From Dudresnaya verticillata (lineage: Eukaryota), in NCBI GenBank assembly GCA_977862235.1, contig OZ374562.1:1550001-1614000 (forward strand): DNA of 64,000 nucleotides, read 5' to 3'. Position 1 is the first letter of the stretch. Each line of letters opens with the position of its first letter. The translations under genes and the position numbers were made by a program. The notes beneath the pieces are model-generated. The model searched no databases and had not been told where the DNA came from. It saw nothing but the letters and a program-made list of their open reading frames with translations. This document shows positions 12,738 to 64,000 of this stretch, in pieces.

Positions 12738-12807
12738 CTGGTCTCCCGACCTAGAACGTGGTCCCGAAGTTTCGCATTATTCGTAATTCGTTTCTATCCG
12801 AGACACG

Positions 12808-20120: not shown

Positions 20121-20437
20121 CGGCCCCCCCCTCAAGCGTGAGCGCCCCGCTCACGGCCGTTGAGGTTTCCCGGGGCCACGATGGCAATCCCGAGTGGCCG
20201 TTGACAGTGATTGGCACGCGCGCCCGTCGACGGTGTATGCGCGTACCCGCCCGTCTGCGCCGCTGCGCATATAAGGATCAACGCGGAGTCGGCGCTGGGG
20301 AGGTTGCGGGTATCGCTCTCCACGACCACCCCTTCGCCCACACGCTTCAGCACACCAGTGACCGCTGTCGTGTGTGTATCGTGCTACGCCTTCTCCGCCC
20401 CCTTCGCTCGACACGAGTGCCCACGTCGACGTGCGGT

Positions 20438-31539: not shown

Positions 31540-31601
31540 CCTTTACGTCGATCGCGTCGATGCGAGAAGTACTTGGGTCTCGACGACTTCTAGGTCGGGA
31601 G

Positions 31602-32498
31602 TGTAGTGCAAAACGTCTTTGACGGACACTGCCGAGCAGTTCGGGGCTCGGTGGTAGCGACGCCTGCGGCGATGAGTGGCCTTGACGTGGGCGTCTGGTG
31701 GTAGAGCGGTTGACTCGCCTTGGGCGGACTGTAAACGCCCTTGGCGGAAAAGAAGAACAAAAGGAAACAGAAAAGGAACACGTCGAGGACGGGTAGAGAC
31801 GTGGAAGCACGGAGGTAGACGCTTAGCCGTAGGCAGCGGTAAGGTACGCGCGTGCTGAACGGGGAAGTCTGGACCAAGGCCGGCTTGCCGGGGTTTACTG
31901 TGACGTCTGAGACGGATCAACTAAGTACAGGATTACCTAGCGGCGGCGACGCGGATGTACGCGTAATGCGGGAACTCGGGACACGTGTTGTCCCGAGGCG
32001 CGTCTGACAGATCCGTCCGTCATGCAGCCGCGCTCCTGACAGATCACGCGTAGTTCCCCGCGCGAGTCCTTACACCTACACGTGGATCCTTTCCTTACAG
32101 CCGCGCGCGCGCCTCATGGCGCGAGCGATCTCGATCCGTACCGATCCCGATCCAGTCCGGATTCGGGCCAGCGATGCGGATGCGCCAGGCTTACAGGCGT
32201 GTGCCTTACACCCCTTAATCCCGATGTGGGATCCCGATTGGATCCGGATTCGGGCCACGCTTACAGCGAACGTTCCCGCCACTGCGCCACGCGCGCACGC
32301 GTGGCGCCGTACAGTGGCCGGGTTCAGGCGTGCGGTCTGCACGCCCAGTGAGCCGTTCTGGCCCAAGTGGCCAGCGGCATGCGTCGGTGACGTGTTTGCG
32401 CCGCGGGCGGGTTGAGCGCGCCGTTGGCGGTCGTCCGTCGGTAGACGCTGCATATTAACGCTTGAAAGGGAAAACGGGGGACCCCCCCTGGCACTACA
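31602..32498 (-). repeat. 3' LTR of element E
   Basis: TGTAGTGC...GCACTACA, near-identical to 43897-44793. Confidence 0.95.
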
Positions 32499-32960
32499 CG
32501 ACCCCCTCCGAAAACGCAAACACGTCAACCTGCTTCAGCCTGCCTGCCTTCCCGCGTCTGCGTCTCTTCCAGTGCCGATCGTGTCGGTCACCCGCGTCTT
32601 CGCGCCTGCGTTTTCCCGCCCTGGGCGTTGGTTGAGCCCCGTCAAAGACGCACGTTCAGTTGTCCACCCGCCGTTGGCGCAGCAAGAACTCCGTCGAAGA
32701 CGTGTTGTTGACTAACTTCGCCAGTGGCGTGCGTGAAACCCCGTCGTTGACGTCGTATCTTGTGCACGCGTGCGTGCGCTCATCGCCTAGGGCGTTTCTT
32801 TGAGGTCCGCCTTCGGCGTTGTTCAGTCCAGCGTCGTTGACGTGTGCCGTGTTTGCTTCCGCCTTTGGCGTAGTTGACTCCACTGCGGAGTCCGAGACCG
32901 TCGTTGACGTATCGTGTGAAGTCCGCCAGTGGCGTGTGATTACTCAACGTCTCAGACGTA

Positions 32961-43769: not shown

Positions 43770-43876
43770 AATGCAGTCGCAGAGTTGCCTGAACGTCGTG
43801 GACGATTAGCGACGGACGTCTAGAGACGGAAAGTCGGACGTCGCACGACGGAGTAACTCGTTGAAACGTAGCACAC

Positions 43877-43894
43877 TTCTAGGTCGGGAGACCA
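43877..43894 (-). promoter_or_regulatory. Primer-binding site of element E (tRNA-Tyr type)
   Basis: Reverse complement is TGGTCTCCCGACCTAGAA, adjacent to the 5' LTR. Confidence 0.88.
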
Positions 43895-43896
43895 GT

Positions 43897-44793
43897 AGTA
43901 GTGCAAAACGTCTTTGACGGACACTGCCGAGCAGTTCGGGGCTCGGTGGTAGCGACGCCTGCGGCGATGAGTGGCCTCGCCGTGGGCGTCTGGTGGTAGA
44001 GCGGTTGACTCGCCTTGGGCGGACTGTAAACGCCCTTGGCGGAAAAGAAGAACAAAAGGAAACAGAAAAGGAACACGTCGAGGACGGGTAGAGACGTGGA
44101 AGCACGGAGGTAGACGCTTAGCCGTAGGCAGCGGTAAGGTACGCGCGTGCTGAACGGGGAAGTCTGGACCAAGGCCGGCTTGCCGGGGTTTACTGTGACG
44201 TCTGAGACGGATCAACTAAGTACAGGATTACCTAGCGGCGGCGACGCGGATGTACGCGTAATGCGGGAACTCGGGACACGTGTTGTCCCGAGGCGCGTCT
44301 GACAGATCCGTCCGTCATGCAGCCGCGCTCCTGACAGATCACGCGTAGTTCCCCGCGCGAGTCCTTACACCTACACGTGGATCCTTTCCTTACAGCCGCG
44401 CGCGCGCCTCATGGCGCGAGCGATCTCGATCCGTACCGATCCCGATCCAGTCCGGATTCGGGCCAGCGATGCGGATGCGCCAGGCTTACAGGCGTGTGCC
44501 TTACACCCCTTAATCCCGATGTGGGATCCCGATTGGATCCGGATTCGGGCCACGCTTACAGCGAACGTTCCCGCCACTGCGCCACGCGCGCACGCGTGGC
44601 GCCGTACAGTGGCCGGGTTCAGGCGTGCGGTCTGCACGCCCAGTGAGCCGTTCTGGCCCAAGTGGCCAGCGGCATGCGTCGGTGACGTGTTTGCGCCGCA
44701 TGCGGGTTGAGCGCGCCGTTGGCGGTCGTCCGTCGGTAGACGCTGCATATTAACGCTTGAAAGGGAAAACGGGGGACCCCCCCTGGTACTACA
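43897..44793 (-). repeat. 5' LTR of element E
   Basis: Direct repeat of 31602-32498. Confidence 0.95.
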
Positions 44794-44803
44794 GGGAGAC
44801 CAG

Positions 44804-45577
44804 TGTAGTATAGACGCCGGGTCGATCCGGCGTCTGATACTTGCTGGTCCGAAGCCGCCACACAGACCCGTCGATGGGTAGCTGTTGGGGTTGGTAGAGC
44901 GGTGTCGGCCGCGTGCGCCCCGCAGGTGCGGATCGACGGCGTCGATGCCGGAGCGCGCACGGGGCGTACCGTACGCGGGTAGGCAGCGGCCGGATCCCAG
45001 CATCCCTGTCGAAGGGCGGCACGAAGCCGACGGAAAGGAAAAGGAAAGGGGAAAGCCTAGCGAGGCAAGGGGAAAAGGGAAACCGCCCGCTGGCGTAAGG
45101 CAAAGGGATCGAACCCGAAAAGGCTGGGGGCAAGCTTCGGCGCGAGCTGTTGCTTGCCCGGTTTACTGAGCCGTCGATGGCCGACGGTCTTAAATACCCT
45201 ACACTATGTGCACTACGACTACTTCTACAGTAGGTGCGCCCCACAACACCAACGCGGGAGGCGTGCGAGCGCGCGCCCATACACGTGTCGATACGTCCGG
45301 GTAACGATTACCCGTGGGCGCGCGCGGGGCGTAACGGGCTGCGGCCCTCTCAACGGCTCGATGCCGGAGAGCGTCACAGGGGCGCGCCGTGTGCGGCACG
45401 GCGCGCGGCCGTTGCCGGCAGCAATGCGGTCCACCGCTACTAATTCAACGAAAAAAACTAAGGGCACGCTGCCCAACCACGACTCGCCAGCGGGCGTCAT
45501 CGTGTGCACCATTACAGTGCGGCGCTGCCAGCATACCTTACAGCCGCTGCTGATAGTGTGCTGACAGCTATAATACA
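44804..45577 (-). repeat. 5' LTR of element D
   Basis: Direct repeat of 19347-20120, followed by TSD GAGTT. Confidence 0.95.
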
Positions 45578-46635
45578 GAGTTGTTTGGGAAGTTTCCACC
45601 TTTTGGTCGCTCGGACGCTCCGCGCCTCAAGGGGTCGCCCAGTACAGGCCCGGACATCGTAGACGAGTACTCTACGAAACACCGGGTCGCAACCTCTATA
45701 CTTTCCTTCAGTCGGTCGCGCCGAGTCTTTACCGTGCTTCCGCACCCCCCCTTTCGGGTCATCAGGGCCCGCCTTTTCCAAGTCTCTACCAATCCTCCCT
45801 CGAGCTACCACACATTAGCGTGTGACATCGGACAGCTGTCTTTTCTTGTTCTTTGCTGTTTCTGGCCGCTGCCATACTGCTACATAAAGTTCCCCATCTC
45901 TCTCTCAGACTTGGCACTAATATATGTAGAGATAATAAACCCAACGGCCTCTCAAAGCGAAACCTCCTTGGTAATCACTGTTCATCTTACTGATTCGTTT
46001 GGGATGACCAGTTCTTCTTTTGCAAGTCTGATGATTCTTTATTTGAGGAACCAAATTGCAGTTCCTAGTTATCCTACGAGGCTTCATATGAAATCCGATA
46101 ATCTTAGCCTCCCTGGGAGAGTGTAAAAGGGGAGAGAAAACTCTCCAGCAGCAGTACAGTAAACAAACGTGTAGAGCCGCATAAAGTTCCGACATTTGAC
46201 AACTTGTTGAATGACATGAAGGCCGCATGAGTCACAGTTGCGGAATGCAGGTATTATTCTACATTAAGCCGGTTTAAGTGGTAGCATTTCTATCCTTCGT
46301 CAAAGCGAGAAAGTTCGCGATGCATTGCGCGCCGCCGTCGAGCTCAGGACCAATGGTGCCGTAGATGTCCATAACCATGGAATGAAACTCGAAGTTCTTG
46401 TATTCACGGAGACGGCGGTAGTGAGGAACTTTTTCCCGTTCACAAGATTGAATGGCAGTGTGGGGACGAGATGTAGAAGGACGAATAGTGCATGAATGTG
46501 GACTTACGACAGAGATGTGTTTACGAGAAGCGGCGATTCCGAACCGAATCTTCTTCCAGATGACAACAATCTTTCATGGACAAATTCACTCCAGTGCTTC
46601 ATTTGTGTGCCTTTTGCCTGCCTTTCTCAGATGCC

Positions 46636-48231
46636 CTACAAAGCTATTTTCGGGTCAAGCACGGTAAACGACTTCTTCAGGCGAAATCGAAGCACAGAAA
46701 CATCCTCCAGCTTTCCATACTTTCGTGGTGTTCCAACTACACATGATAGCACCTTCCCACCTAATGCTGGTCTCACATTAGAGCACCTGACCTTTCCGAT
46801 CTTTATCGAGGGGAAGAGCCTCTTGATACCTGTAGAAAGGATGAAGACCCTGCTCCCCGGTAATCCACGTCGCGGGAAGATGTTGCGGATACCAGGACGC
46901 CTTCGCATTCCTGATTTTGGAATGGCAATACCGATGGAATTTCTTTGCGGTTGAGACAGGAAGATTGCGCCGAGAACGTCCACATCCAAGGTAATGCCTG
47001 GAGTCTCCACAAGCCTTGTAACTCTTTTTGCCCGTAAGTCAAAGATGTTCAGGCCCGGGGGCAGCCGATCCGTAATATCGCTACTCTCGATATTGTCTGC
47101 GTCGGCCCCCAGCAGTTTCCCACGGAAACGAGGAAATAAATTTGCTTCGTAGAATCCTAGTCCTACTGTGCCGGTTCCTATTATTCCTTCTTCTGTGGCT
47201 TGATCATTGTTGAACAGTGGTGGAGTGTATCCGGGGAACAGAAGTTTAGCCCGCGATGGGGGGATTCTTCGTAAAACAGTTTTGCATTCTCCAGCTCTTC
47301 TTCGATTTCCATGACCGTACCAACGCCCTTTGCGCAGCGGGATGACATTGTCGGGCTGACTGCGCTCATATGGCATCGATTCATTACAACTAATGCTGAC
47401 TGGACCGAAAGGCTCGTTGGCACCGCCGTCAACCACCCACGGCTTTCCATTTCGCGAAAGAGCTATTTGAAAACTTGACCTTAACCCAGTTGCAAAGAGC
47501 TTCACCCCAGTAACGTCAGGGCCGTCGACTAGCTCGGCAGTGGCAGAATTTGAGCTACTCCAACGAACGGAGCGAGTTACCGATGATGAAGTTACATCCA
47601 CATCTAACATTGTAGCGCTTAGCAAACAGTCTGGGAGATTCCCTTCCATTGGTGACTCTGCCCCTCCATTGTTGAATGTCCCGATGGAGACCCAAAGCCT
47701 CCCAGTCCTAGGGTTAACAGCGGAACCAAACACGGCTTGCTGCCCAAGGCTGAGTGATACCGGGAGTCCGGATATAAATGGTTTGTCATCTACCACAAGT
47801 GAAGGTCCAGACTCGTCAAGAATTACTCTTTCAATTCTGCCATTCTGCCAGCCACTTTCGGTAAAGCCCTGCATTCTCCATTGGAGAGCACTAGAGGAGA
47901 CGTAGAAGGTTAGAGGAGAGAATGGGTTCGCGGAAATGCCAAGAATAGTACGGCCAGCTCCAACTGTTGTCTCGGAATGCACGGCAGTTACCGTGTACTG
48001 CAGCCCAGCTCTCTTGACTCGAAGCAACTTGAGTACTCCAAGCCCTGTGCCGATCAGCAACAGGTCCGGTTGGGTTGGTGCAAATGCGAGAGCAGTTACG
48101 AAAGTTTCCGTGAAGTTGTTTCCATTCTGCTGCAGCAGTGTGCTTGCGAAGACCGGCTTGGCAGTGGCAAAACTTGTAACAGCCTGGGACACAGTCATGA
48201 GTATGGTGAGGGGGAAGAAAAGCACAATCAT
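46636..48231 (-). CDS. Secreted glucose/sorbosone dehydrogenase-like beta-propeller protein with a C-terminal IPT/TIG-like domain
   Basis: Signal peptide MIVLFFPLTILMTVSQA; FATGLRSSFQIALSRNGKPWVVDGGAN, GRLWVSIG and KGRWYGH are typical of GSDH propellers; PGIRNIFPRRGLPGSRVFIL..IKIGKVRC is IPT-like. Confidence 0.75.
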   Translation of the reverse strand: MIVLFFPLTILMTVSQAVTSFATAKPVFASTLLQQNGNNFTETFVTALAFAPTQPDLLLIGTGLGVLKLLRVKRAGLQYTVTAVHSETTVGAGRTILGISANPFSPLTFYVSSSALQWRMQGFTESGWQNGRIERVILDESGPSLVVDDKPFISGLPVSLSLGQQAVFGSAVNPRTGRLWVSIGTFNNGGAESPMEGNLPDCLLSATMLDVDVTSSSVTRSVRWSSSNSATAELVDGPDVTGVKLFATGLRSSFQIALSRNGKPWVVDGGANEPFGPVSISCNESMPYERSQPDNVIPLRKGRWYGHGNRRRAGECKTVLRRIPPSRAKLLFPGYTPPLFNNDQATEEGIIGTGTVGLGFYEANLFPRFRGKLLGADADNIESSDITDRLPPGLNIFDLRAKRVTRLVETPGITLDVDVLGAIFLSQPQRNSIGIAIPKSGMRRRPGIRNIFPRRGLPGSRVFILSTGIKRLFPSIKIGKVRCSNVRPALGGKVLSCVVGTPRKYGKLEDVSVLRFRLKKSFTVLDPKIAL

Positions 48232-50201
48232 GATGCCGGGTGCAAAGGAAATCGCAGAGTTTGTTCCGTTCGCTACGGTTTTGCGTGAGACTCAATCCAG
48301 GGCCTTCATCCAAGGAAGCAGAGACTCTGCTGTTGCATTTGTACCGTTTAAGACTCATGTTGCAATGCTGTTCGAAAGGTCAAACGTTTCCCACACGTGT
48401 CTTTTGTTGTTCTGAGGCGCTGAGTTCCGGACTCCCGGTTGCTTAACCCTAGCTAGGGGCTTTTTTTCGATTTTTAACAATAGACTTGAGGTGAACGTAC
48501 GTGTTCACAAGTTACTGAACAGGTGGTCCCAACGGGATGCAGGAAAGTTTCCAGTAGCTTCAATAATATGAGAGATTTTTATTGTGTTGTTTCTTGTTAC
48601 AATGCAGCACGCAACGACGCACAGTGTCTGTGCGTGAACCGGACACCGGATAAGATAAGATACAAGTACTTCCTGAGATCAGTAGAAATCCTCCGCAGCA
48701 TCGGTGGTGGCCAGCAAACGCCGTCCGTTGTTTCAGAACGAGATTCTGGATCCCTTGTGCTTGTGGTGCACGGACCAACAATGCTCGCATCTCATTTGTC
48801 AATTCAGAAAGGCACGGCAGCTTCGAAGCGACAGACGGCAAGGCCGCGGGGCTGCATGGGCCCGCGCAACATTGACTGCGTCACTGCGACAATAGTCTTG
48901 CGCTCAGCTTCAGCGACTAATTAGCCGTGCACAAAACGTACGCAGTGGTGCTGGCAGATACGCTCTCGAAACCGTTCCAATGCGTGTGCACCACGAAAAA
49001 GATGAAACTTACCTGTGGCACAGATAAAATCGTAGCTTTCATGTCTCAAGGTATGGGGGTGCGTTTCGCTGCTCCCTGCTTGTACCCCAATCTCTGCTCT
49101 CTCACCTTGTCGTCAACCGCCGGTCACAGGACTCGTGTTCCCCATCGTATCCCTACGGAGGGCTCTCCCAAGATACGAGGAATGTGCCAGCAAGCCACCG
49201 CTCGCAGACAGAGAGCCAGCTCGAGTGGCTTTTTGCAGGCAAGAATGACAATGCACCGTGACGTGATACGGAATAATGTGCTCTCCACGACAAGTACGTA
49301 CTGTACAAATCGCAATTCCCTTCAAACACCAGTAGATACTAACGACCAGCATGACAGTAACAGACCACGACCACACGATGTGAGGCGCTCAAGAATCTCC
49401 CACTTTTGGTTTGGATCTCCTTCAGCCTTTTGCCGGCAGAAAGGCAGAAGGGGGTTGACCCGTGGGCTGGGCAAGAACTCCACGTCCTTTATGGTTCGAG
49501 GGGCTCGCGCTGAGGAAGAATGCGATGTCGACTTTTCGGCCTGAGGCCCCTCTTTATGAGCATTCTCTGCTGGAGAAGAAGCTTCGTCGGCATCCGCCGA
49601 GAATAACCGCTCGCCGAGAGAGAAAAGAAAAAGGAGACTGCGACAGAGGTTGCGGAACCGGCTGCATGACGTTTTTGCCTTCTCGTCTTCAGTTTTTAGT
49701 GTTCTCTGTTCTCGTAAGCGTGGCTCCCGTACCGCTGCGGTGAGAAAAAAGCATTAACACCAGCGCTGCGACAGTCGTTGAGAAACGGCAGGGTTGTGTG
49801 CGGTGTGCTCTTACATCGAGGCATAACAGCAACGTGGTGCAGTATTGTATTAAATGAAGTTAAATGTAAGGGATAGTGGCCGGCGAGGCACACAGTTGGA
49901 ACAACTATGCGCATCCCGCCGTCATTGTCCTCACGAGGGGCAGAGAAACGATGCTTCCACAGGTGTGCATTGGTGAAACATGCAGGTATCGACAGTCCGG
50001 TATCTGAATCTGGACATTGATCAATCAGACTTTGCGTTCACGCGCAGCACAACAAGCCAATCACTCTGCCCTTCATAAGGGGCTGGCAGAGGCAGGCAGA
50101 AGCCGTAGGTGCCCCTTCTTGCATCCCGACAGTATGCCGAAGCCCCGGTCTGGGCCGCCTGTGCGCGCATCCTCCTCCAAGCCTACCGCCCCAGCCCCGC
50201 G

Positions 50202-51311
50202 ATGTCAGCACCAGCAAAGGCCGTGCCAATCTCCAGTCTAACCCTCTCCTCCCGCAACTGGTGCGTAACCGGCACTGTGTCGAAGTCTCGCCGGGCGGGC
50301 ATCTCGGCAAACCAGCGCCGCACGCGCTGGAAAGAGTTCTTCCTACAAGACGACGATAACGGCCCGGATATCCGCGTGGCCGCCTTCGACGCGGCGTCCG
50401 ACGCGGCCGAGGCCGTCATTCGCGACGGCGTGCTCTGTCGCATCTCCTCCGTCCACGGCGCAGAGGTGCACGAGCGCGGCCCCGCCGTCGAGATCCACGT
50501 CAACCATTGCGATGCCATCGAGGTGCTCCGGGCCGCACACGAACACGACGCAGGCTCACCTGCGTCGCGCAACCGCTGGATCCCGCCCGCTGTGCGTGCT
50601 CCAACGTACGACGCACCTGCGATGTACACGGCCGCGATAGCCGGGCATGGGTCTTCTCCAGACCGCTACCTGCAGAGCTCGTTAGCACCGGCGCGTCATG
50701 AGGGCACACCACAACCAACCCCTGCGTCAGTTCCAGTTGGTCCGGAAAGCAGAACCTACGATGTGTTCATAAGCCATGCAGGGCCAGACAAGCCTTTTGC
50801 CATTGCGATCTACAACTCTCTCCAGTCTTCCGGAATAAGCGCTTTCCTTGACAAGGAGGAGATCCCTGCTGGGGAGCCATTCAGTCACGAAATCGCAACA
50901 GCAGCGCACAGCTCTAAGGTTGGGCTATTCATTCTCTCGCCGGAGTTCTATGCGCGTAAGTGGACGCTTCGTGAGCTGAGCATGTTCTTTGATCGCCGTG
51001 ATTCCGGAGCGCGGCCTCAACCGAAGCTTATCCCCGTCTTCTATCGTTGGCGGCCGAACGACTGCGTCGAAGAGTTCTACCGAAGAGAGTCGGCGGGGAA
51101 TGTTTTCACTAGGGAATGTTTCTTCGATACAGCTATGCAGAACGAGTTTCCCAAGCATGATGTGTTCTGCCTGATGCGTCGGTTGCATAGGTTTGCTGGT
51201 GTTGCGTTGGATCCTGCGACTCCGCTTATGGTTAAAAAGGGAAAGGTGAATGGACCAGTACGGGCGGTGAGCGACAAGGTAGTAGATGTGCTAAGGGAAC
51301 AGCTGCAGTGA
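50202..51311 (+). CDS. OB-fold (RPA1-like)-TIR domain fusion protein, 369 aa
   Basis: N-terminal VPISSLT...WCVTGTVSK...FFLQDDDNGPDIRVAAFD...IRDGVLCRIS; C-terminal YDVFISHAGPDK...AFLDKEEIPAG...ILSPEFYARKWTLREL...LIPVFY. CCAAT lies upstream of the ATG. Confidence 0.85.
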   Translation: MSAPAKAVPISSLTLSSRNWCVTGTVSKSRRAGISANQRRTRWKEFFLQDDDNGPDIRVAAFDAASDAAEAVIRDGVLCRISSVHGAEVHERGPAVEIHVNHCDAIEVLRAAHEHDAGSPASRNRWIPPAVRAPTYDAPAMYTAAIAGHGSSPDRYLQSSLAPARHEGTPQPTPASVPVGPESRTYDVFISHAGPDKPFAIAIYNSLQSSGISAFLDKEEIPAGEPFSHEIATAAHSSKVGLFILSPEFYARKWTLRELSMFFDRRDSGARPQPKLIPVFYRWRPNDCVEEFYRRESAGNVFTRECFFDTAMQNEFPKHDVFCLMRRLHRFAGVALDPATPLMVKKGKVNGPVRAVSDKVVDVLREQLQ

Positions 51312-54300
51312 ACTGCAAGCTGCATTTTCAACGGAATTGACCTTGGAGGCGGTCAGAACCGGTACCCTTCCTTCGCCCTACGGGGGCCGACCTTCCAAGA
51401 GCAGCCGGAGACGTTAGGAAACGTTCGAAACATTCTGGGAAGCACGGTCACTTCTCGACGAGGCGCAACAACGGCATTTCGGTCGGGGCGGCGAAACGCC
51501 AAACCTGCCAACCAAGTTCGTCGCCAGCATCCCGTACGCCGTGACCAGCTCCACGAAGACCCGTCGTTCGAGAGCGCACTTTGGGTGCTGCTAGGCCCGC
51601 CAACGAATTGGGCTGCACTGGCGGGGAGCTGGGTGCTAGGCGGGTTGCGCACGACCAGAGTGGCTCATCGCTTCCGCGGGCATTGCGCGGGAGCGGCTTG
51701 CACGGCAGCGGCCTTCTTCATAGCACAACACCCATGTGCTCTCTCGCGCAACGAGAATAAGCGATGTGTGTTGGCGGTGCTTCTTCAGGCGGTGCGGCTG
51801 GGCACGGGGTTCCGGGCTCCGCCGTTTCAGGTCGGACAGGAGATGAGGAGATTTCGGCGGCAGGCAATCTGGGGCGAGATCTCCGGCTCGGCTTGGATGA
51901 CTGTTTGTAGCACTTCAGCGAGAAAGTGAACAAGAGGGGTCTGGTGCTGCTCCAGAATGTGGCAATGGAAGCGACTGGCAAGATGTTTCCGTTTGTGGCA
52001 CAATGTGACGACAATAGGCCCAAATATTACCGAAAAGTAGAACGTTTGTCGCGTAACAGCACTAGCGATACTCTACAAAGTATCTGCCGCCTGCACCACT
52101 GTTGTTCCTTTTCAGAAACCAGGGCACAGCGCCGGTACGAATGACGGGCCGACATTATGCGGGACGGCGGTCACAACCATGTCGACAGACGCTCGACGAA
52201 AAGGGCTGTGTGGCCTTTATGTGTGTGCACACTTCGTCAACACAGACATGGAGCAAAGCAAATAAAATACTTGGCGTTCTTCGAAGGAGCCAGCGGCGCG
52301 AAGCAGCTCCTTCCTTCCTGGCTGTGTTGCCGTGCGCTCCGCTTGCATTGCAACGCTTGACCCCACGCGAGTTGACCCCTCGAGAGCGGAGACACGTCGA
52401 CTCATGAAGCGCTTCGCCAAGGGTAACATTACAAGCACAATTGAAACTACTGACGTATGCCCCTCGCTCATGGCGTGGCGAGTAACGTGTGCCATTTGTT
52501 AAAGTGTATCCGTTCCTCGTAGTGTTACGACAAGCGGCGGAGCCCATAACGCGAGCACCTCCTGCCCGCGCGATTCCTGACCGCAATGCCCGTGTCTGCT
52601 GCTCTTATCATGCACCCGTCCTGAGGCTTGGTGTGCAGTATGTCTTTTTGGCTACAAGTGAGTAGAGTCCTGCGGGCAGGGACAGGATTCCACATGTGCT
52701 GTGCTTTTCTTTGAGTGTTGTGGCCATCTCTGTCGCATATTTTGCACTATGATTTCCCCCTTCCTTTGAAGCCTTTATGGGCAACAGCGCGAGGTGAACA
52801 GCCCTGCGATTTTGGCTATTGCTCAATCTGTGCCACAATCTGTACCTGTTGCTGGCAACTGGGCCACAACAGCAACCGTTGCCTCTCCGTTACCTCATAA
52901 AGAACGCACCCAAGCTATCTAGTTGGAGTCAACAATAACATTCTCGACCATTGAGGAAAGGGACATCCGTTACGCAGGGACAGCTTTTTCGACTTAAGCC
53001 GTTGTCCAACAAGATCACAGCAAAACACACCCTCCGCTGCAAACGACAATCGCTCCTTGTTGCAACACTCCTATTAACACCACGTCAGGATCTAGATACT
53101 CATTCTACAGTGCATTTTGACACTCGCTGTGAAGGTCGTGAAAAGGCCCTTGCAGTAGCGCTGCGCTATCCTTTACTCAGCACGATCCAAGTGAAGTGGT
53201 AGATAGCGAGTAGTCGTGTGCGAAAAAAAGAGGCTTACTGGGGAACACCAACACGAAAGGAAGGGCCAAGGCAGAAGACCAAGGCTGGGCAGCGGGCTGT
53301 TGTCAACGCTGCTACTATTGCGACGATCCGCGCTTGCATAAAGCAAGAGAGATTCGCACGCTAACGCTCCGCGACCGCAATTGCGCTCGCACAGGAAGAA
53401 CGGCAACACCTCGGCGCAGCAATCGCGCTTCGCGCGCCGAAGTCAGTTTACTGCCCGCCGCAATGGGACGGGGTTGCCACCGGCCGGCCCGCCGCTGTGT
53501 TGTTATATTTTATTTGTTGTTTATTTAACGTGGTCCTGCGTAGGCGACTTTGGCCCATTTGCAGGCACACGGTCGATTGATGGGCGGGGAGAGATGCACT
53601 ATGGAGTAGAGATGTGGCGGTGGGTGGGCTTGTCTACTGGGTGGCATGCGATGAGGGGTATTCTTCGAGGCATATACGACGGATGGCTCGCAGGCCGTCG
53701 CAGACGCGGTCGGCAGCGGATGGGTCGGGGTCGTGGAGTGACAGAAGTGACAGTGTCTGTGCGTGCGGTCGCAGTGCGAGACGGGCGGCTGGACAGCTGG
53801 GTGGGATCGGGAAAGTCCCCAGGTGCCAGCGTGTGGCTAGCTTCCTGTCTTGGTGGTCCGGGAGTTGCAGACCCAACGGTAGCCGGTGGTGTCTGTGAAC
53901 CGGAGCCATCCTTCTTCCTGATAACGCCATTGTCCATTCTCTTATAGCGACGGTTGTGGGGGACGTACCTTGGCGCAGACTATCTTGGATGCCTGGGTGT
54001 TGAAGGTTGATAGCGCCGTGAGTGTCCGACTTGCCTGCCATGAGGCTTGAACGTTCTGCCGCTGGGTCAAACGGCGCAGGCTGTGAACGAGCTTGTGTTG
54101 TAGGGATCTTTGTCGCAATTTTCGCTGTAGCGCTCGGACTCGGGTATCGTGCCCCAGAGACCAGGCGCTCTGGTCATGCTCCTACTGTATTCGTCGAAGC
54201 GACCTCCAGAGATCACCCTAGAAAGCAGTCGGTCTTGTTCTTCGTCCGCAGTAGTCCTTTTCTGGCTGACAGTCCCCGGGACTCAGCTTCATCAAGAGCC

Positions 54301-54836
54301 TGTTGCATCGCCTTCCACGCTTGTGGCGCATGAGACAGGGTTTCCCTTTCACTCTGCAGCGCTGAGCATCGGCTTACAGCGTTCGTCCACACTGTTGACG
54401 ACGAGATGAGGTGTTGAGCGTCACACTATCCCCAATAAGAAGAAAGAATATAGAGCTTTACCGAATCTGGTCTAAAAACCACAAAGGGGGCACTTATGCA
54501 GAGGGTGGACGCAGAAGGTAGAAGAGAAAGGAGACTACGAATGGCACTCATGGAGCCCCGTGAACAAAGTGAGAAGAAAGTGATAGGCAGAGCGGAGTTT
54601 TGGTAACCGAATCTGTCTTGTCTGCTTCTAAGAGCGTTGGAGATTTTCCTGGAATGCTCTCTTTCTTAACTCTGGTGTAACTCCAAGGTGCCTGTGCAAT
54701 AGATAAGCTTGCAATGCAAATCTCTCCAGAAGAAGCAGCAAGAATATGAGGGAAACGCAATGATGAAACTGGTGCCACAGATGACGACAATTTTCTTCCC
54801 GACTGGAAGATGCTAAAACATTCTCTCTGTCCGTTC

Positions 54837-55160
54837 TTATGCATAGCAACAGCTGCACCCAGGGTGACAATGGAGACAACAATGATTGCTGCTCCTACTC
54901 AGTCGGCCATGATACAATTCTTGAGAAGGTGGAGAGTGTTCGCCATTCTTGAAGGAGCCCTTTGCATTCTCAGTCTTTGATACAGCATGATGAGACACAG
55001 AGGCCGATCCAGTCCCGGCGAAGTGGGCAGATACTTCTTGGTTGAATTCCTGCTCTACAGAATTGCGAAGAACTTTGGTAGTCGTGAATGGGGGAATCGC
55101 TACAGAGTGGGAGGAAGAGCAAAGGACTAGGAAAACGAGAGAAACGAATAAGAGCTTCAT
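54837..55160 (-). CDS. Putative small secreted Cys-rich prepropeptide, 107 aa
   Basis: Strong signal peptide MKLLFVSLVFLVLCSSSHSVA, a polar spacer and C-terminal CCLHCHPGCSCCYA. Confidence 0.55.
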   Translation of the reverse strand: MKLLFVSLVFLVLCSSSHSVAIPPFTTTKVLRNSVEQEFNQEVSAHFAGTGSASVSHHAVSKTENAKGSFKNGEHSPPSQELYHGRLSRSSNHCCLHCHPGCSCCYA

Positions 55161-58100
55161 GGTAGGTCTAGATGATGGGGTATTGCTGATGTGTTTGTCT
55201 CCAGATCCCGAAGGCGTATGGTCAAATAGCAGGTCGGCTGATATATACGCAAATAGACTCAAAGGAGACAATAGAACGTCTCTTTCTTCGTTGCTTCCCT
55301 TAGCAACGTCTAAGAATAATCATACACTTCTCAGGACAAGCCCCATTACAAGCATGTAGAAATCAAAGTTATGTAGGGCTTCTCTAGAGCACGGTTTTTA
55401 TGTCACCGATAGCTTACAACCAGAGTTTCTATATGCTTTGCGTTCCTCACTGACTACGCCGCCCAATGCAATGACCATGACTTTCCATGCCCTCTTCGCA
55501 ATCAGAGTTACTGTCTCAAAAGCAGTATCCTACACTCGTTGAAAGTTTTTTCGTTCACCATGTACTCCTTCCCCTTGCAAGTGCCAATGACATGCTAATA
55601 ATGCTGAATATGCATTCGAGTTAGCACATAGCCGCACATAGCCCACCATCACTCAGACATGTTCACAGCATCTAACTGTAAATGAGGCCCGAATTGCTCA
55701 CACACAATACTTCCATTTCTCCTTTCTGCTCCACTCCAGTGCACTACGACACATCACTATCACAGCCAGCGCCTCGTAACCCTCCACTCAGACAAACAAG
55801 ATAATTGTAACTGATGCGCGCATCTTTTTAATAACGCGAAAAGTACGTCAGCCTTTAGGCTATTGAGGGGGAACAAGCACAAACGTCTGGGAGGGTTAAA
55901 TCTGGGATAAATTGGCAAGAGCGGTGCGCAATCGTACGGTGTGTCGTGTAACGTGTTCTGAGCCGTACTGTTGCGAAACGTGTACTATCACGCACGGTAG
56001 TCAACAGTAGCAGAGAAGAGAGGGTAGAGAAATAAAACTTTACTGACGAAGGAGCCCAGGCGTACGACCTAGCGGCAATTGCGCAACGGACTACGTCCAA
56101 CGTTGTGCTTATTCTTCGTCTCTCTCTGTCTCTCTCCAACCGCGGGCTGTAGCTGCTCACGCAGCTGTGATAAAGGTTGCGCCGCCGTCGCGCTGGCCGC
56201 GTTGTACACGTGGCCAGCGCGTTTCAAAATATAATATCGGGCGGCGGCCCAATGACACGGTGTAATCCAAAAGGCCGGTTGAAGAGATTCAGTGGAAAGG
56301 AGCACGCCGTGGACAGAAGTAGGTGCGGATAGTGTTTGCGCTGCAGGTCGGCCAGACAAAGTGCCGTACAAACCTGATTGAGAAGATCATCCATTACTTG
56401 CTGTCTTATGCATGCCTTGTTGCAGGGGCGTTTGGAACATGACATACTTTCTCGTCAGACTTGGGTGAGACTCGCCTATTGGAATTGTTTCCAAGCTGAA
56501 GACCATAATTACTAAACTGCTCAGTGATGCAAACGTCTTCGTGGGTTGGAAATTGTTGGTTAGTGTATGGCATGAACAGGATTCTGTCTGGACGAGTAAT
56601 TGGTGTCATCTTGATGATGTCGTGTAGGGTATTGAACTAGAGAGAGCATGAACATGGAATCTTGTACTCGCGTTGTAATTTTCAACGTTGAAAGATCTGG
56701 GTGAGCAGAGCATTATCAGATGGAGAAGAAAGTTCCAACGAGCCCAGGCGGTCTTGCGCCATCAATGATTGATTCGACTTTGCTGCAACATTCCGCAGAG
56801 GTGTAAAACGCTTGTCGATACTGTGATTAATATTCAATACCTGTATTTCTGGCTCTGCGTACGCTCACATCGCTCCGTGTGAACTCCAACTTGTATCGCT
56901 GTTATTCTGTTTTCTCGAACTTATCAATGCTATGTTTTCCTTCTCACACGCCTTACCTCATTACTGTTACAGTGCGTTGCGGTCTCAGTTAACAGGTGTA
57001 ACCTTGTTGACCGCCGCGTTAGAAACAGTGCAAAGCAAGTCCCCTTAGGGGGGTTGCTCTCAAATTTGAGAACAAAAGGATACTTGATGTTTAGTCTTTG
57101 GCAATAACATTATTAAGAGCAATACCTGACCTGAACTAGGCCATATGGTCTATTCAATAAAATTAACTTCTTCGCGGATATTCGATAGGAAAGAAATTGT
57201 CTTGTCTACAGTCAGCTTGGGCTAGTACATGAACATACCGGGTTTCGAGAGCCAAGAAATCACTGTAGGCTAGAAGATGAATTGTGTTGAAAGTGTACAC
57301 ACAGGTGTCAAAAAGGCACGGTGGACTAGGCTATCTTCAGAGTGGGCTAGCCGAGCAATCGTGAGCAATCGCTTAGCAGTCCACCATGTATATATCTGCT
57401 GGAGTCAAAAGCTATAAGCCCCGATCGGAAAAGGAAGAGGATGTAAATAGCAAAGCAAAGCATGAACATTACAAGTGGTGATTCAAGTGCTTGCGCAAAC
57501 GCGCGGAGGAATAATTTCCAATATCGCAGTACAGATAATAATGTCTAATCTCGCAGGACAGATAATCCGCCACCATCTATCTCTACAAAACGCTAAACTG
57601 TAGCGCTCTGCCTAGGCTGGACTATGTCCACGCTGGAATGTTCGGACTTCGGACCAGTCAGAGAGCATGACGACATGCAGCTCTAAAAGTGGAAGCCTTC
57701 CCTCTCCCTTTTGGTTCGGAAAAGAGTACGGTTTCTTCAATAGAGACCTTCGCGAGAGATTGCTACAGTACCACACCGTACTCATCAGAACGTGAAGTTC
57801 TTTTTCGTACTGCTTGTTTACGGTGTGCAGCCTCGAGAGCCGCACAGCCCCAGAAATGGCTGATTTGGTGCGCTTGGTGCTCGTGCGTAAGATCCGCATT
57901 ACATGCCAGCCGGGGCCTTTTTCTTTTCGCGGCACCGTGCGACTGTGAGGTACGTAAATATAACAGAAAAATACATATCCTTCCTCTTGTAGCACGGCAT
58001 TGTCTGATGGGCTGCAATCCGACCTGTGGACGGCGGACCGCAACGTTCCGCCGACGATCTTGACGCCAACAAAAGGTGTACAACCCGGCACCACGTGATT

Positions 58101-60014
58101 GTCTCTAGTGCTTGCCTGGATGCATTCTATAAAGCCATCTTTCCCTTGATCAAACATGGCTCGCATAGGAAGGACGCCTTAGCAGTTGCTTGTACTTTCC
58201 ACAAAAAGAAGCCCCCTCCTAACGCACTCTTGCGGACTGTGTGCAACAGGACTGCGGCTTTGTCTCCACTCTCTATTGCCCCAGAACCTTACTCCGTAGT
58301 CTAGGTCCTTCTACTTCGATGCTTCTCAGCAGTGTAGCAGACTTTTGAACCAAAAAATTTCATGCATTCGACTTAGTCGGGTCCGATATGAGAGGGATCG
58401 GACGATCCCAACTGGTGACGATCCATCGTCACCAGTTGCAAACATGTGGTGGAATAACAAGCTGCACAACCAGAGACAAACATTCCTCACTGGGTCCACA
58501 CTCACTTTGTGCTTCCAGTGCTGTATTTTGGATAATAATCTGTCGAAAAGCCACGAGACCTCACCGAGGTGCTGCAGGAATGTCTGAGTAGCAAAACAGT
58601 ATTCCAAGTCTTGGCCACATGGACCCTTCTCCAGCAGTATGACTATTGTAGTATTTGATACTTCAAGTCCTGTTTTCGCGCTTCTTTATTGTCCGGCCGT
58701 TCCACTCGGCCTGATGACCAGGCCACCAGGCCCTGAGTAAAGGTAACCTCTTGCGAACCTTTTCGTATGGGGAGATATTGTAATTTACGGCAAATTCAAT
58801 AAGCTCTCACTGCCATCGGCGACATAAGCCCCAAAGCAACCTCTATCGTCTCTTCATAGATTATTAGGGGGTACTCAAACAGCAGCGGGCGCATTCAAGT
58901 GCACATCCTCCACCTATTTTTCTTGCCTGCCAACCACTCTCACGACCCTTGTGCTCCAACGTATTGCGTTAGTTTGAACCGCTGCAGCCTCTCCCCTCCG
59001 TCGGCTTTGCGTCATAGTCCAGCGTGATTTCTCCTAGGCGACCTTTTAGTCCCCATTGAATGTATCTCTCCCCATGAATTCCTTTCCTTATCCGTTGGCC
59101 CCCAAAGTTCAGTGTGAGCGTTTAATGGAGTTCGTGATCCTGAAAGAGCCCAACAACGTACGTATCGATACCCTCCAGTACAGTACCGTATACACAATCA
59201 CACTTCTCACTCCACAACCAACTACTCATTCTCAGCGACCAGCACCTCTTGAGACCGAGTGATAAAACAGAATGGGCTTCTTGCGCCTTTCTACAGGGCA
59301 ATCACTTGTAAAGGGTGTTCTGTAATCCCGTTTCGACCAGAGTTTTGCGCAAGCACAGAGGGCCCAAATACAACAACTTTCTACCGCGGCCCTATTGCAC
59401 GCATCTATTATCGGGTCCTTCAGGGTGTTAGAGATTCGCTGCTGCCCAGCTCGCGGGTACCTTGCAGGGGACCTGAAATGGCTTGAAATCCTTTCAATGA
59501 AAGGCCGAGGTTTCGATGCGGAGAGGGCCAATATCCTCAGCACCGTGGCAGGCACGCGCAGAATAGTTGCGCAACTGCTATCGTAGCACTACTCCGTGAG
59601 CAGGGCATGGGCATTGGGATCGCGCTACCCCCAAAAAACCAACATACTGCTGGGTCCCAGTCGCAGCGGTCCGGAGGTCGCCGACGAGTCGAAGGGAAGG
59701 TCGAAGACGCAGGCCTGAGAAAATGATGGCGGGGTGGCGGTGCTGGGTCATCGCTTATTTCAGGCAAAGTAATGCCTACGAGCGATAATCAGATTTATCG
59801 ATATGTTTCGCAGCATCATTAAGGCGCACTGCCCCTAACAACTTGAGATAAATGCATTGTATGGGAGCCCTTACAGCCCCTAAAACCTTTGGGAAGCCTT
59901 TGCAGCCTTTCCCACACCGGGGATAATATATATGTGCTGCGAGCACGCCTGGCAAGAAGACCGCTGTTTCCTCAACATCACTCACCTATTTTGACTTGAG
60001 CATCTTGACAACTT

Positions 60015-62462
60015 ATGGACTTCCAAGAACTGCAGCTGGTGTTTCAACTAGCTACCGACAAGCCCGAGGCAGAGCGCAGGCTCCGCACTTGGATTGAGAG
60101 ACACTCAACTTCTTTCAGCAGAGAAGAGATTATAGTTTTAATCCCATGCGTTATTTTGGGGAAGCTGGCAGTCTCCGTAGGACAAGGAGGGATTCTTGTC
60201 GGAGAGGACGTTCCAGGAATTGAAACGATGTCTCCGAAGGATGTATTTCAATATTGCCAGATGTTGCTACAGAATGCCAATAGGGTCCTCATTCTCGCTC
60301 CAGCCATTTGTGCATGGCATTTTGATATCCTTAGCGAATATCCTGACGAGACAATTCCACTGGGAAGCGGCTATAACCACGCGGGCGTATCTGGAACTGT
60401 AATGCCCGGAGTTATCTCCCCGGCCTATGCTTTGCAGGCAATCCTTGCGTCATGTGTTCTTGATGAATGTGTTGTGATTAGAAGTTCTCCACATGGAGCT
60501 CTCAGTGTGGTTTCTAATGATGGATATCTCAAAATGTACAAGCTTCGAGAAAGGCTTCAGAATTACTCCCCGAAGCACATCACCTGCATGAATTTCAAAA
60601 ATGACGGGCTCCTCATCCGTCAGGGTCGCGATCGTCTAGTGGTATTTGCTGGGATGGTCATTAACTTCATACTTCTGATCGCGCTCGTCATGACAATATT
60701 TTATTCTGCGAGTAGGAGATCGTTCTTCTCTTTCGTGGTGGCGATGGAGCTTTCCATTGCTACATGGGCTTTGATTTTTGTCATCGTAAAATCACAGCAG
60801 GAGAATTTCTATTTCTTTCACGTGCTCGGTAAGTTCATGGGACTTGATGTTTTCGAGTCATTCATATTAAAAGATTTATATTTACTGCCCAACCCAATAA
60901 GAGATGAATTGAGTATAAGTCTTCTTGCCGGAGGGAGCACAAATCTGCCAGTTTCGACACTTGATTTCTTTGGTGGACCAGTTTTGCTACCCCGAGCCAC
61001 TTGGAATATTGATGAAACAATTGTTGGAGTCCTGCTTCATCATAAAACGGAAAGCAGATTGGTTTCTCCATTGACTGGCTTCCAGTTCTCTGTTCACAAG
61101 AATTCAATTGATGGGATTGGCTCTGCCTTATGTTTGAAGTCACTCCACTTTTTTGAGGATGGCTTGACTGGAATTGGCATGTATGACACAGAGTTGAATA
61201 GATTTTGCGTTTGTAGAGCCGGAGAGCTTGAACAGGTTCCAATCCAGAAGAGCAATCGCCTGAGTGAAATTAGAAACATTCTCAGCTTGCAACAATATTC
61301 CTTCCCGCAACATGCAAATATGCAGATGCTGTTGCAGGCTCTGAAAGACAAGTACAACTTCACAACTTATTTTACTAACCCTTCCGAAATGGTTTGTAGC
61401 AACTGTCAAAGTAACGAATGGGTTTCAGGAGCTTCTTCTTGTCTGCCGTTGTTGAGAAATGAGATCGTTAAACATAGAATGAGGCAGCAATGCCATGTCG
61501 GAAGTCATGGCTGCATTTTATCCGAAGCCGTGCATAAGTTCCTAACGGGTCAAACAAATTTCAGTATTGCATCGCATAATTTCTATAGTGATTCAGAAGG
61601 GAACCTGAGCGTGTCCTCAAGAGAGCTTCTGGAAGAGCTTAGCGGTCAACTTCGACAAGACCTATATACAGGTGGTATGTTGGTACAATTAACAATTAAG
61701 GGAAGTGCAACTGTTTCAAGAGCTGTTGCTGCGCTTCGCTGTTTGCTAGAGGGCAAAGCAGTTGCATACTTGAACTTGGAGACAAATAGAACTGAGGTTA
61801 TTGCGCAGATTGGAGAACTCGCTGACTGGCCAGTCTGCACAAAAGTTCAGAGCGTGAGGATAGCAAGTAACGCCAAGGCCACTGCTTTTGAGGACCAACG
61901 ATTTGGCTCAATTGCTCTCATCGGCTTTTTCGCTTCTGCGGTTTTCGCAATTGCCACAGGGGTTTTGTCAATAGTGAGTGCAGCACAAGCGGGAGAAGCT
62001 TGGTACGAGAGGGTATCGGTGATTTTCTTTTGGCCGGCACTGGGGACCCAGCTTGCGGCAGGATTGCTAATGTTTTGCAGGTTTGCGGGTATCTTTCCTT
62101 CTCGTCTTCCGACATGGGAGGGTAGTCCTGACAGGGCAGAGTCGGTATTGATGAGAATGGGAGAAAAGGAGAGAATTTTACACTCATATATTGGGAACAT
62201 TTCGGCACAGCATAGCAGTGGGTCGGCAACTTATGTTAGAAGGGCGGTCATTAGAAGTGGTGCTCTCCGGGTCCCTCCAATTTCCAAGGAGAGCGCCAAC
62301 TATGGCGGTATCGTCACCACGGCGAGAGGAACAGCGATCAGTCTATTCAACCTCGATGAAGCAAGGTTCTCCGAAGATGGTAAGCGACTGAAGTGGATGC
62401 CAGTTTCTCGACGGGGCCGTCTAACAACACTAGAAGACAAAGAATTTGGACCCTTGGTGTAA
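60015..62462 (+). CDS. Uncharacterised 815-aa membrane protein (2+2 TM helices)
   Basis: Long uninterrupted ATG ORF in lower-GC DNA, with hydrophobic helix pairs at about aa 208-258 and aa 630-690. Confidence 0.85.
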   Translation: MDFQELQLVFQLATDKPEAERRLRTWIERHSTSFSREEIIVLIPCVILGKLAVSVGQGGILVGEDVPGIETMSPKDVFQYCQMLLQNANRVLILAPAICAWHFDILSEYPDETIPLGSGYNHAGVSGTVMPGVISPAYALQAILASCVLDECVVIRSSPHGALSVVSNDGYLKMYKLRERLQNYSPKHITCMNFKNDGLLIRQGRDRLVVFAGMVINFILLIALVMTIFYSASRRSFFSFVVAMELSIATWALIFVIVKSQQENFYFFHVLGKFMGLDVFESFILKDLYLLPNPIRDELSISLLAGGSTNLPVSTLDFFGGPVLLPRATWNIDETIVGVLLHHKTESRLVSPLTGFQFSVHKNSIDGIGSALCLKSLHFFEDGLTGIGMYDTELNRFCVCRAGELEQVPIQKSNRLSEIRNILSLQQYSFPQHANMQMLLQALKDKYNFTTYFTNPSEMVCSNCQSNEWVSGASSCLPLLRNEIVKHRMRQQCHVGSHGCILSEAVHKFLTGQTNFSIASHNFYSDSEGNLSVSSRELLEELSGQLRQDLYTGGMLVQLTIKGSATVSRAVAALRCLLEGKAVAYLNLETNRTEVIAQIGELADWPVCTKVQSVRIASNAKATAFEDQRFGSIALIGFFASAVFAIATGVLSIVSAAQAGEAWYERVSVIFFWPALGTQLAAGLLMFCRFAGIFPSRLPTWEGSPDRAESVLMRMGEKERILHSYIGNISAQHSSGSATYVRRAVIRSGALRVPPISKESANYGGIVTTARGTAISLFNLDEARFSEDGKRLKWMPVSRRGRLTTLEDKEFGPLV

Positions 62463-64000
62463 GACGAGCGTGATAGCGTTGCAACTTTCAACTTGAAAGC
62501 ATTGAATGTATTGCAAAAGCTCTCCATGTCACCGCCCTTGCTTCCTTTCTTTCTCGGTGCTTTGTCTACTCCTCTGATTTTTCTACGCGGGCCCAAGTGC
62601 TGAAGGGTGGACCACCAGACTACCGTAAGTGCAACAGCTATGTGCTAGAAATGTAACAAGTCTTCAAGCTGCAGGACAAAGGCTTCACTATTATCATCTA
62701 TCTCTCACCACTTGTCCTGCGACTTCATGTGGATGCAAGACGATCTCAGCAGGCTAAGCTCTCCTAGTGTCTATCGACATAACCTACAGCAGGAATAAGC
62801 CCAACTACAACTTTGCGTACTACAGCATGGTAACAACTAGCCTAGGCCACTCTATTCTTTCAAGTTTTGCACTATAGCACTATCCACTGCAGCGTGCTTT
62901 GTATCGATACCAAGTAACGCTACTTGGCCCTCAGGGCTGGTGTGCCTGCTAATGGCCCAGTGTCGCCCGCGTAGGACCACCTTAAACAACCCATTAAAAA
63001 TTGAATCATCATTAGAGACAAGAGGTTAGATCAGTGATAGTACATATCTGTTTGAGAGCATTTCAATTGGACCAGGAAAAGCTGCGTAGAACTATTGGGA
63101 GTTTTCCGTGTGCCTTCGATTTTTGACTCCATTCGCCATCCTGTAGGAAGCCACCATCCGACGATGGAGCTGGTGGAGCGAACAGTTCGGCGGGCAGCAC
63201 TGAATCACCGGAAGAGCTTACAATAGTTCCTCAAGACTACACTGACACCTTTTGAATAGAGTACAAAATGGCCCTTTAAAGAGGATCCTTCCGGAATGGG
63301 CTGGTACCCTGAGCACTGATGTGAAAACAACGTAGAATGGTGGTTCACCATTGCTAAAGATTGGTCTGTTATTTTACAGCTGCTAGAATTGAAGATATTT
63401 GTCCATGTCGATGCGTATTTGGCGCTGTAGTAGAACTTAGTACTCGAAGCAAAGTGGTCTTCGACATTTCCACAACGATGCATCCTTCCAAATCTGTTCC
63501 ATAAATTGGAGCATGTGGTTGATGCACAGTGCAAAAAAATGCCCATGCTCAGTCTCACGCCTCCCGCAGAGTGCTATCGCGATGAGGAGACCGTCTAAAC
63601 GAGAGATACAGAAATCTACGGCGATCTCCGTGACGTTCCTTGAATAGTAGAAGTTCTACACAATGTCCCCGGTTTGCAACTAAAATCAAGCACTGTTACA
63701 AAGGGCAGGTGGAAGCCAACAAGGGAATGCCCAGCATAATTTCTATTGTAGCCCGAGATTAGATTATCGGCTTGGCATCTCACAAGATTGCTGCTGAGGG
63801 CGAAGCAAGACACCGTGCGTCTCTGCCACTTGATCCATCACAACGGTATATACTGCGTAGCCCGAGGAAAGACCTGAAAACGACAATGACAGCTATGCCC
63901 CTTTGCCCGCTTGCCTGTTTTGGAAGCCGTGACAGCAGCGTGTGGTGCTGCCAAGATCGGCCGGCATCATGGAGAGACTGAGACAACAGCCACCGGCGAG

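Follow-up and report, generated by a model that had tools for sequence, protein, structure and literature searches.

Gene content of the window

The window, by which we mean the whole stretch of 64 kb that was analyzed, contains on its + strand an open reading frame of 369 codons without internal stop (50202..51311). Its product, which we name P0001, consists of an OB fold that is connected by a linker to a TIR domain. The first 45.6 kb of the window, which is eukaryotic, are mostly retroelement-derived and contain ORFs for reverse transcriptase, RNase H, integrase and chromodomain. The presence of long ORFs without interruption next to chromo-gypsy elements may point to a red seaweed as host. 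An outer gypsy-type LTR element (19347-45577), which encodes a chromodomain integrase, has 774-bp LTRs that are 98.6% alike and is bounded by a duplicated GAGTT target, harbors a second, nested gypsy-type element whose ends (31586-32498 and 43875-44793) are 98.7% alike; both elements are young. Each of the two also contains one long ORF (908 codons at 20108-22834 and 775 codons at 32940-35267, counted from stop to stop, both +) that runs antisense to gag-pol in the interval separating the left-hand LTR from pol, and that gave no Pfam match at E≤0.1. The regions 33-2464, 11885-13361 and 16487-17213 are repeated fragments that are 86-95% alike. Judged by eye, their ORFs resemble parts of a DIRS-type tyrosine-recombinase retroelement; the two of these ORFs that were scanned had no match in Pfam.

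Position 45577, where the right LTR of the outer gypsy element stops, is 4.6 kb upstream of the ATG of the P0001 gene. The original prediction gave this distance correctly, as about 4.5 kb. Closeness to a retroelement is uninformative here, however, as the first 45.6 kb of the window are mostly retroelement, and another gene (46636-48231) lies in between. This gene, on the - strand, is an unrelated ORF of 531 aa with a signal-peptide-like N-terminus; it had no Pfam match at E≤1 and its exact sequence is absent from the protein collection.

Terminal repeats framing the P0001 gene were not found in region 48300-54500, and region 45500-64000 contained no Rfam match. Plant Helitrons carry RPA-like genes, according to the portion of PMC4683698 available to us. 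A strict Helitron scan of region 45578-64000 returned a single hairpin-CTRR-T site, at position 62937, which is 11.6 kb away from P0001, and no RepHel-like ORF was noticed among the ORFs of the window. Two other features were observed on this side of the window. One is an ORF of 817 codons (60009-62462, +) with several hydrophobic stretches and a sub-threshold Pfam match (E 0.09). The other is a pair of intergenic sites, at about 53521-53570 and 62940-62989, that match each other in inverted orientation over 50 bp with 82% identity.

The OB-TIR reading frame

The frame encoding P0001 is open from position 50109, and its first in-frame ATG is the one at 50202. When the bases of the entire ORF were shuffled, none of 5000 versions remained open. 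When only the 213 nt encoding the linker were shuffled, however, 3610 of 20000 versions did. Since the linker alone is often open by chance, its continuity is weak evidence for the fusion, and the real support is provided by a second protein, P0002. This protein also contains an OB fold followed by a TIR domain, and its linker cannot be aligned to that of P0001, which argues that the fusion in P0001 is not a chance read-through. The sequence GTAAGT at 50956 was considered as a splice site and rejected, as it is located within a conserved R-K-W motif.

The only Pfam families that P0001 matched at E≤1 were TIR_2 and TIR. In agreement with what had been predicted, P0001 therefore contains neither NB-ARC nor LRR, and inspection by eye of the downstream ORFs of at least 90 aa did not reveal an NB-ARC or repeat ORF. 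With NB-ARC and repeat domain missing from the polypeptide, P0001 is not a TIR-NLR or TNP. It is not built like RPA1 (RPA70) either: P0001 has one OB fold followed by a TIR domain, whereas RPA1 contains DBD-A, -B and -C in tandem plus a zinc ribbon. Finally, P0001 gave no Pfam match to PYD or HIN and its OB fold is single, and hence it does not belong to the AIM2-like receptors.

An RPA/SSB-type OB fold at the N-terminus

Structural modeling established an RPA/SSB-type OB fold for residues ∼5-112 of P0001 (50214..50537, +). An AF2 model based on an alignment of four sequences had a pLDDT of 83.5 and a pTM of 0.76, and three of the five models scored above 82. Foldseek returned 13 matches to this model at E≤0.001, every one of them an RPA/SSB-type OB fold; the best was OB-A of Tetrahymena Teb1 (E 5.1e-5), and RPA70 was matched at E 3.7e-4. 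Superposition with VIA-align gave Z 12.7 and an rmsd of 4.3 over 110 aligned residues for Teb1, and Z 11.5 and an rmsd of 3.0 over 103 aligned residues, at ∼20% identity, for residues 183-293 of RPA70. The OB folds of archaeal RPA, SSB and MCM10 also score within 1 Z of Teb1, and structure by itself thus does not point specifically to DBD-A of RPA1. An earlier AF2 run on the single sequence of residues 1-123 (pLDDT 45.3, no Foldseek match at E≤0.001) was discarded.

The sequence matches are weak and point in the same direction. Residues 1-117 of P0001 had no match in Pfam, and weak OB matches were obtained for two relatives, P0002 (E 0.0099) and P0009 (E 4.7e-5). A P0001/P0002 profile searched against 177,635 PDB sequences retrieved only DBD-A of human RPA70 (three matches at E≤10, best 0.19), and a four-sequence profile, which also included TIR columns from P0002, matched RPA70 DBD-A at E 0.0024. 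Based on these matches, descent of the OB fold from DBD-A of RPA1 is likely. The original prediction had assigned an RPA1 DBD-A-like N-terminus and would have been refuted if this region did not model as an OB fold. The OB fold was indeed obtained, and it is only the attribution to DBD-A in particular that depends on the weak sequence matches.

Other searches were less specific. In the Atlas the top three matches of residues 1-120 (0.91-0.93) were unnamed clusters, and named OB proteins, found at 0.88-0.89, are regarded as leads only; full-length P0001 gave no usable match. The best TM-scores to the query in a viral fold library (0.63-0.66) were lower than those of the best cellular matches (0.67-0.71), and there is thus no sign of a viral donor for the OB fold.

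In an alignment to residues 182-241 of 8rk2_A, R58 and F62 of P0001 (50373..50387, +) are the counterparts of R234 and F238 of RPA70, which are named as DNA contacts in the portions of PMC4269926 and PMC4937323 available to us. Both residues are unchanged in 5/5 OB copies. Judged from strand alternation, W43 and F47 in strand 2 probably face the same surface as R58 and F62. The position of W43 is aromatic or His across the OB family (H/Y/Y/Y), and that of F47 is Y/F/Y/F. Residues 26-44 contain seven K/R and no acidic residue. The basic hairpin of the P0001 OB is not conserved among its relatives, however, and the net charge of the OB is neutral (14 K+R, 14 D+E).

Other contacts of RPA70 appear to be missing. 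R210 pairs, in a weak alignment, with Gly33 of P0001, and this contact is not kept. The second aromatic contact, F269, is located on what we take to be the long L45 loop. The sequence alignment ended before F269, and in the OB model strands 87-92 and 95-100 are connected by a turn of two residues, so that an L45 loop with an F269 equivalent looks absent. The DNA-binding face seems partly kept. In RPA, mutation of polar residues can sharply lower the affinity and mutation of aromatic ones has a modest effect (available text of PMC4937323), and conservation of F62 is therefore no proof of DNA binding.

The linker and the TIR domain

Residues 113-183 (50538..50750, +) form the Pro/Ala linker that had been predicted between the two domains. 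Pro, Ala, Ser and Thr account for 51% of its residues and it is likely disordered; BLAST did not align it to the linker of P0002 at E≤10.

The TIR half (50751..51308, +) consists of a Pfam core, residues 186-287, and a conserved C-terminal extension up to residue 369. Matches to TIR_2 (PF13676; E 2.9e-20, 73.4 bits versus a cut-off of 28) and TIR (PF01582; E 2e-14, 54.2 bits versus a cut-off of 21.3) were well above threshold, and with YDVFISH, FLD, ILSPEF and WTLREL all present the domain is as complete as had been proposed. The closest PDB sequences are AbTir, PdTIR-type proteins and the flax proteins L6 and L7, at E values from 5e-10 to 5e-9, and Cat1 (9mud) is also among the sequence matches. 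The WxxxE motif, W254-T-L-R-E258 (50961..50975, +), aligns to WTNYE of AbTir and WCLME of L6/L7. W254, T255 and E258 pair with W204, T205 and E208 of AbTir, and the glutamate expected at the catalytic position is thus retained. In the portion of 10.1101/2022.05.07.491051 available to us, AbTir E208A is inactive, W204 is required for cyclization of ADPR, S176 and R178 matter for activity, and, within a filament, two TIR domains jointly build the active site. S191, G224, W254, T255 and E258 are all conserved at positions of the AbTir site. The BB-loop residues S176 and R178, on the other hand, correspond to P226 and S228 in P0001, which counts against full conservation. The catalytic WxxxE motif is intact, and P0001 may thus cleave NAD+.

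Relatives of P0001 and spread of the two modules

P0002 is a protein of 328 aa (Logan, one contig) that matches P0001 at E 2.4e-52, with 40% identity over 87% of P0001. It is the only one of seven matches among 5703 candidates that spans both halves. Identity between the two proteins is 47-50% in the OB fold and 42% over 186 columns of the TIR domain plus tail. That both domains are kept while the linker has diverged is as expected with selection on both domains. P0002 as called begins midway in the first OB strand, so that either the gene was called too short or its OB domain is damaged. These results demonstrate that the OB-TIR architecture of P0001 is real and conserved.

The OB module also occurs on its own. 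When 1.84 billion representatives were searched with an OB profile based on P0001 and P0002, three passed E≤0.001, namely P0002, which is a member of the profile, P0009 and P0010. P0009 (768 aa) contains two OB copies and P0010 (159 aa) a single one, in both cases embedded in Pro/Ser-rich sequence, which in P0009 is of low complexity, and neither has a TIR domain. In the reverse direction, a profile built only from the OB copies of these TIR-less proteins recovered P0001 with 39.8 bits and P0002 with 26.4 bits. For both P0009 and P0010, the longest contig given in Logan measures 18,339 bases. A search of longer proteins (575-2000 aa), with a profile that included the TIR columns of P0002, yielded one match in 7989, again P0009; proteins shorter than 202 aa were covered by the representative search only. 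A word-index search with residues 1-120 gave no match at E≤10 among 159 candidates and also missed P0002, which indicates that its sensitivity is low. P0009 compared by phmmer with PDB gave no match at E≤10.

The OB-TIR combination was not recovered from the other sources searched. Among the best 80 of 477 metagenome TIR matches (from 17 of 64 parts), all were TIR-only and the OB of P0001 was present at none of the 80 loci. None of 133 pattern matches in viral contigs was confirmed, and phage records contained no match. Prokaryote genomes gave one candidate in 36 (L081), a match of 12 residues that was rejected as chance.

In a TIR tree of 64 rows, P0001-P0003 grouped with P0004-P0008 and the metagenome locus L016, apart from 55 other metagenome TIRs (support 99/100); this tree represents the 80 metagenome loci by 56 distinct sequences, contains few columns and its bootstrap had not settled. 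P0002 and P0003 were placed together at 90/80 in the same tree, and P0001 and P0002 formed one side at 44/0 in a tree of 15 rows. The TIR trees are poorly resolved and neither demonstrate nor exclude that the fusions in P0001 and P0002 go back to one event.

Two members of this group have other partners. P0003 (Logan, 368 aa) has a TIR domain that is 48-53% identical to those of P0001 and P0002, followed by a C-terminal domain of ∼150 aa without match in Pfam or PDB; its pattern resembles what we take to be actinoporin/aegerolysin-like beta-sandwiches. In L016 (1897-2784) the TIR domain, the only Pfam match, is followed by a P-loop-like GxxGIGKS, noticed by eye, before the ORF ends at the contig edge. 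This P-loop indicates that the family of P0001-type TIR domains likely includes NLR-like proteins.

Possible functions of the OB-TIR protein

We tentatively read P0001 as a one-piece sensor in which the OB fold clusters TIR domains on nucleic acid into an active NADase, a reading to which we give somewhat less than an even chance. Because the NADase site forms between two TIR domains and P0001 has no NB-ARC, a lone TIR needs a clustering agent. The OB fold would collect many copies of P0001 on exposed ssDNA (or RNA), possibly ssDNA of viral or retroelement origin, and the linker would allow the TIR domains of neighboring copies to meet. The assembled TIR domains would then cleave NAD+, and either the loss of NAD+ or a cyclic ADP-ribose isomer, which is possible since W254 is kept, would elicit a defense or cell-death response. 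As a single OB fold would be expected to bind weakly, long exposed nucleic acid and cooperativity between TIR domains would be required, and activation would resemble the length-dependent switch of AIM2. Several points count against the sensor: there is one OB only, its charge is neutral, R210 is lost, L45 is short, and only two OB-TIR proteins were found.

A lone, weakly binding OB would also be compatible with a decoy; an ssDNA scaffold and a decoy were the two ideas put forward in the original prediction. Many OB folds have proteins rather than DNA as ligands, and the OB of P0001 might be an RPA mimic that is bound by a protein of a pathogen or mobile element, which would cluster or free the TIR domain. 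Such an integrated decoy, or protein sensor, would suit the neutral OB with its seemingly missing F269 loop. It would also suit the variety of partners in this TIR family (an OB in P0001 and P0002, a C-terminal domain without annotation in P0003 and a P-loop region in L016), to which the TIR+Pkinase protein listed for Pyropia in the accessible part of PMC6928737 may be added. However, the residues that remained unchanged include R58 and F62, the equivalents of DNA contacts, and an OB that is only ∼20% identical to RPA70 (the human protein; RPA1 of the host may differ) would make a poor mimic. We therefore regard this explanation as unlikely.

Clustering on ssDNA could also serve as a checkpoint on self DNA, in which case the ligand would be host ssDNA, exposed by replication stress, by UV damage or at telomeres, and the outcome NAD+ loss and cell death instead of immunity. 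The closest folds, those of Teb1, RPA70 and MCM10, are indeed OBs of nuclear DNA metabolism, and in the TIR-less members of the OB family one or two OBs are embedded in a protein of low complexity. But the nearest TIR relatives include the NLR-like L016, and an OB family as narrow as this one (three of 1.84 billion representatives, including the profile member) is unlike a core repair factor, so that we give the checkpoint a small chance.

A further alternative concerns the origin of the fusion, for which the original prediction had taken a hint from base composition. The OB part is in fact richer in GC than the TIR part (0.66 versus 0.53), also at third codon positions (GC3; 90/112 versus 109/186, Fisher p 1.3e-4). 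The GC3 change-point is at codon 129, within the linker. In 2000 permutations a step of this size occurred once, which makes it the strongest among the eight ORFs tested (next, 29/2000). The high-GC stretch begins ∼100 bp upstream of the ATG (0.70), however, and GC rises again past the stop (0.62). Moreover, four of the seven other ORFs have a higher-GC3 stretch in their first 150 codons, one of them significantly. A 5′ composition effect would thus be at least as likely as the trace of a recent fusion, and since P0002, at 40% identity, has the same layout, the fusion is probably too old for a compositional trace. Hence, the compositional difference stands but is a weak argument for chimeric origin. 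That the domains form a chimera is better shown by their separate occurrence, the OB being alone in P0009 and P0010 and the TIR being joined to different partners in P0003 and L016.

The GC3 step inside the linker would nevertheless fit a shuffled OB that landed before a TIR-only gene and that acts as a localization or oligomerization tag or has no function, perhaps in a gene that is weakly expressed or decaying. The OB module is found alone, doubled in one protein and joined to a TIR domain, support for a common fusion of P0001 and P0002 is 44/0, and a TIR-only product could arise from an ATG that lies in frame at codon 141. Against such a passenger, both domains are in frame in two ∼40%-identical proteins whose linkers are beyond alignment, and P0001 has neither stop nor frameshift, which makes this possibility about as improbable as the checkpoint.

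Very unlikely, finally, is an L7-like 2′,3′-cNMP synthetase: the TIRs of L6 and L7 are among the best PDB sequence matches (E 3e-9 and 5e-9) and the L7 TIR builds filaments on nucleic acid, but the Cys required for synthetase activity (L7 C132, RBA1 C83; available text of 10.1101/2021.11.09.467869) is replaced by Thr255 in P0001 and by Thr in P0002 as well.

Returning to the one-piece sensor, its most explicit form would be an ssDNA sensor-executioner in which a domesticated RPA domain is combined with a TIR of the NLR family. Viral or retroelement ssDNA would template a filament of TIR domains, and this filament would consume NAD+ or produce a cyclic ADP-ribose isomer. We consider this complete scenario doubtful. 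In plants and algae, TIR proteins that lack NB-ARC are common, and little is known of what clusters them in the cell; with its 369 aa, P0001 offers a direct test case of ligand-templated activation. If the sensor reading is correct, P0001 would be a minimal, guide-free switch from ssDNA to NAD+. If nucleic acid does not activate it, P0001 would be another shuffled TIR-X gene.

Comparison with known systems

The OB-TIR architecture is apparently undescribed. No such fusion was found in the literature searched, a provisional result as supplementary architecture tables for algae could list one, and the accessible portions of PMC7824862 and PMC8195603 contain none. To our knowledge, no nucleic-acid sensor has been described in the eukaryotic lineage to which P0001 belongs.

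Red algae carry TIR domains with varied partners, such as TIR-NBARC-WD40 in Chondrus (PMC9806590) and TIR+Pkinase in Pyropia (PMC6928737). Like the TIR-only and TIR-X proteins of plants and algae, P0001 has a eukaryotic WxxxE TIR, lacks LRR and is shorter than 400 aa. Unlike the red-algal TIRs described in the available portions of these two papers, it has an N-terminal OB as partner and no NB-ARC. Of 56 distinct metagenome TIRs tested, 55 form a clade that excludes the TIR of P0001. With DBD-A of RPA70 and OB-A of Teb1, P0001 shares the fold (Z 11.5-12.7), the PI..L....W pattern and the R234/F238 equivalents. In contrast to these proteins its OB is single, outside an RPA trimer, only ∼14-21% identical, without R210, with a short L45 turn, and fused to a TIR domain.

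The bacterial TIR-APAZ protein of SPARTA is a nucleic-acid-gated TIR NADase. P0001 resembles SPARTA, Cat1 and AbTir in its predicted TIR NADase, which would likewise depend on ligand-driven assembly, and W204, T205 and E208 of AbTir align; it differs from SPARTA and Cat1 in that an Argonaute, a guide and a cyclic-nucleotide sensor are all missing. The flax L7 TIR is similar in sequence (E 5e-9) and also linked to nucleic acid. However, L7 binds DNA via the TIR itself (available part of 10.1101/2021.11.09.467869), and its synthetase Cys is a Thr in P0001.

A parallel in design is provided by the AIM2-like receptors (PYHIN). In AIM2 and IFI16, OB folds template a polymer of the signaling domain (PMC7734173, in the portion available), and in P0001 too an OB-type nucleic-acid part would be tethered to a signaling domain driven by assembly. 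No AIM2 or IFI16 chain was among the listed fold matches of the OB, and the likeness is one of analogy only. P0001 has one RPA-type OB instead of the tandem pair of HIN200 in AIM2, the order of its domains is reversed, and its effector is an enzymatic TIR rather than the death-fold adaptor PYD. If the sensor reading holds, the combination of OB-fold DNA sensing and a polymerizing effector would have arisen outside mammals too, and P0001 would represent a counterpart of AIM2 that evolved independently and acts as an enzyme.
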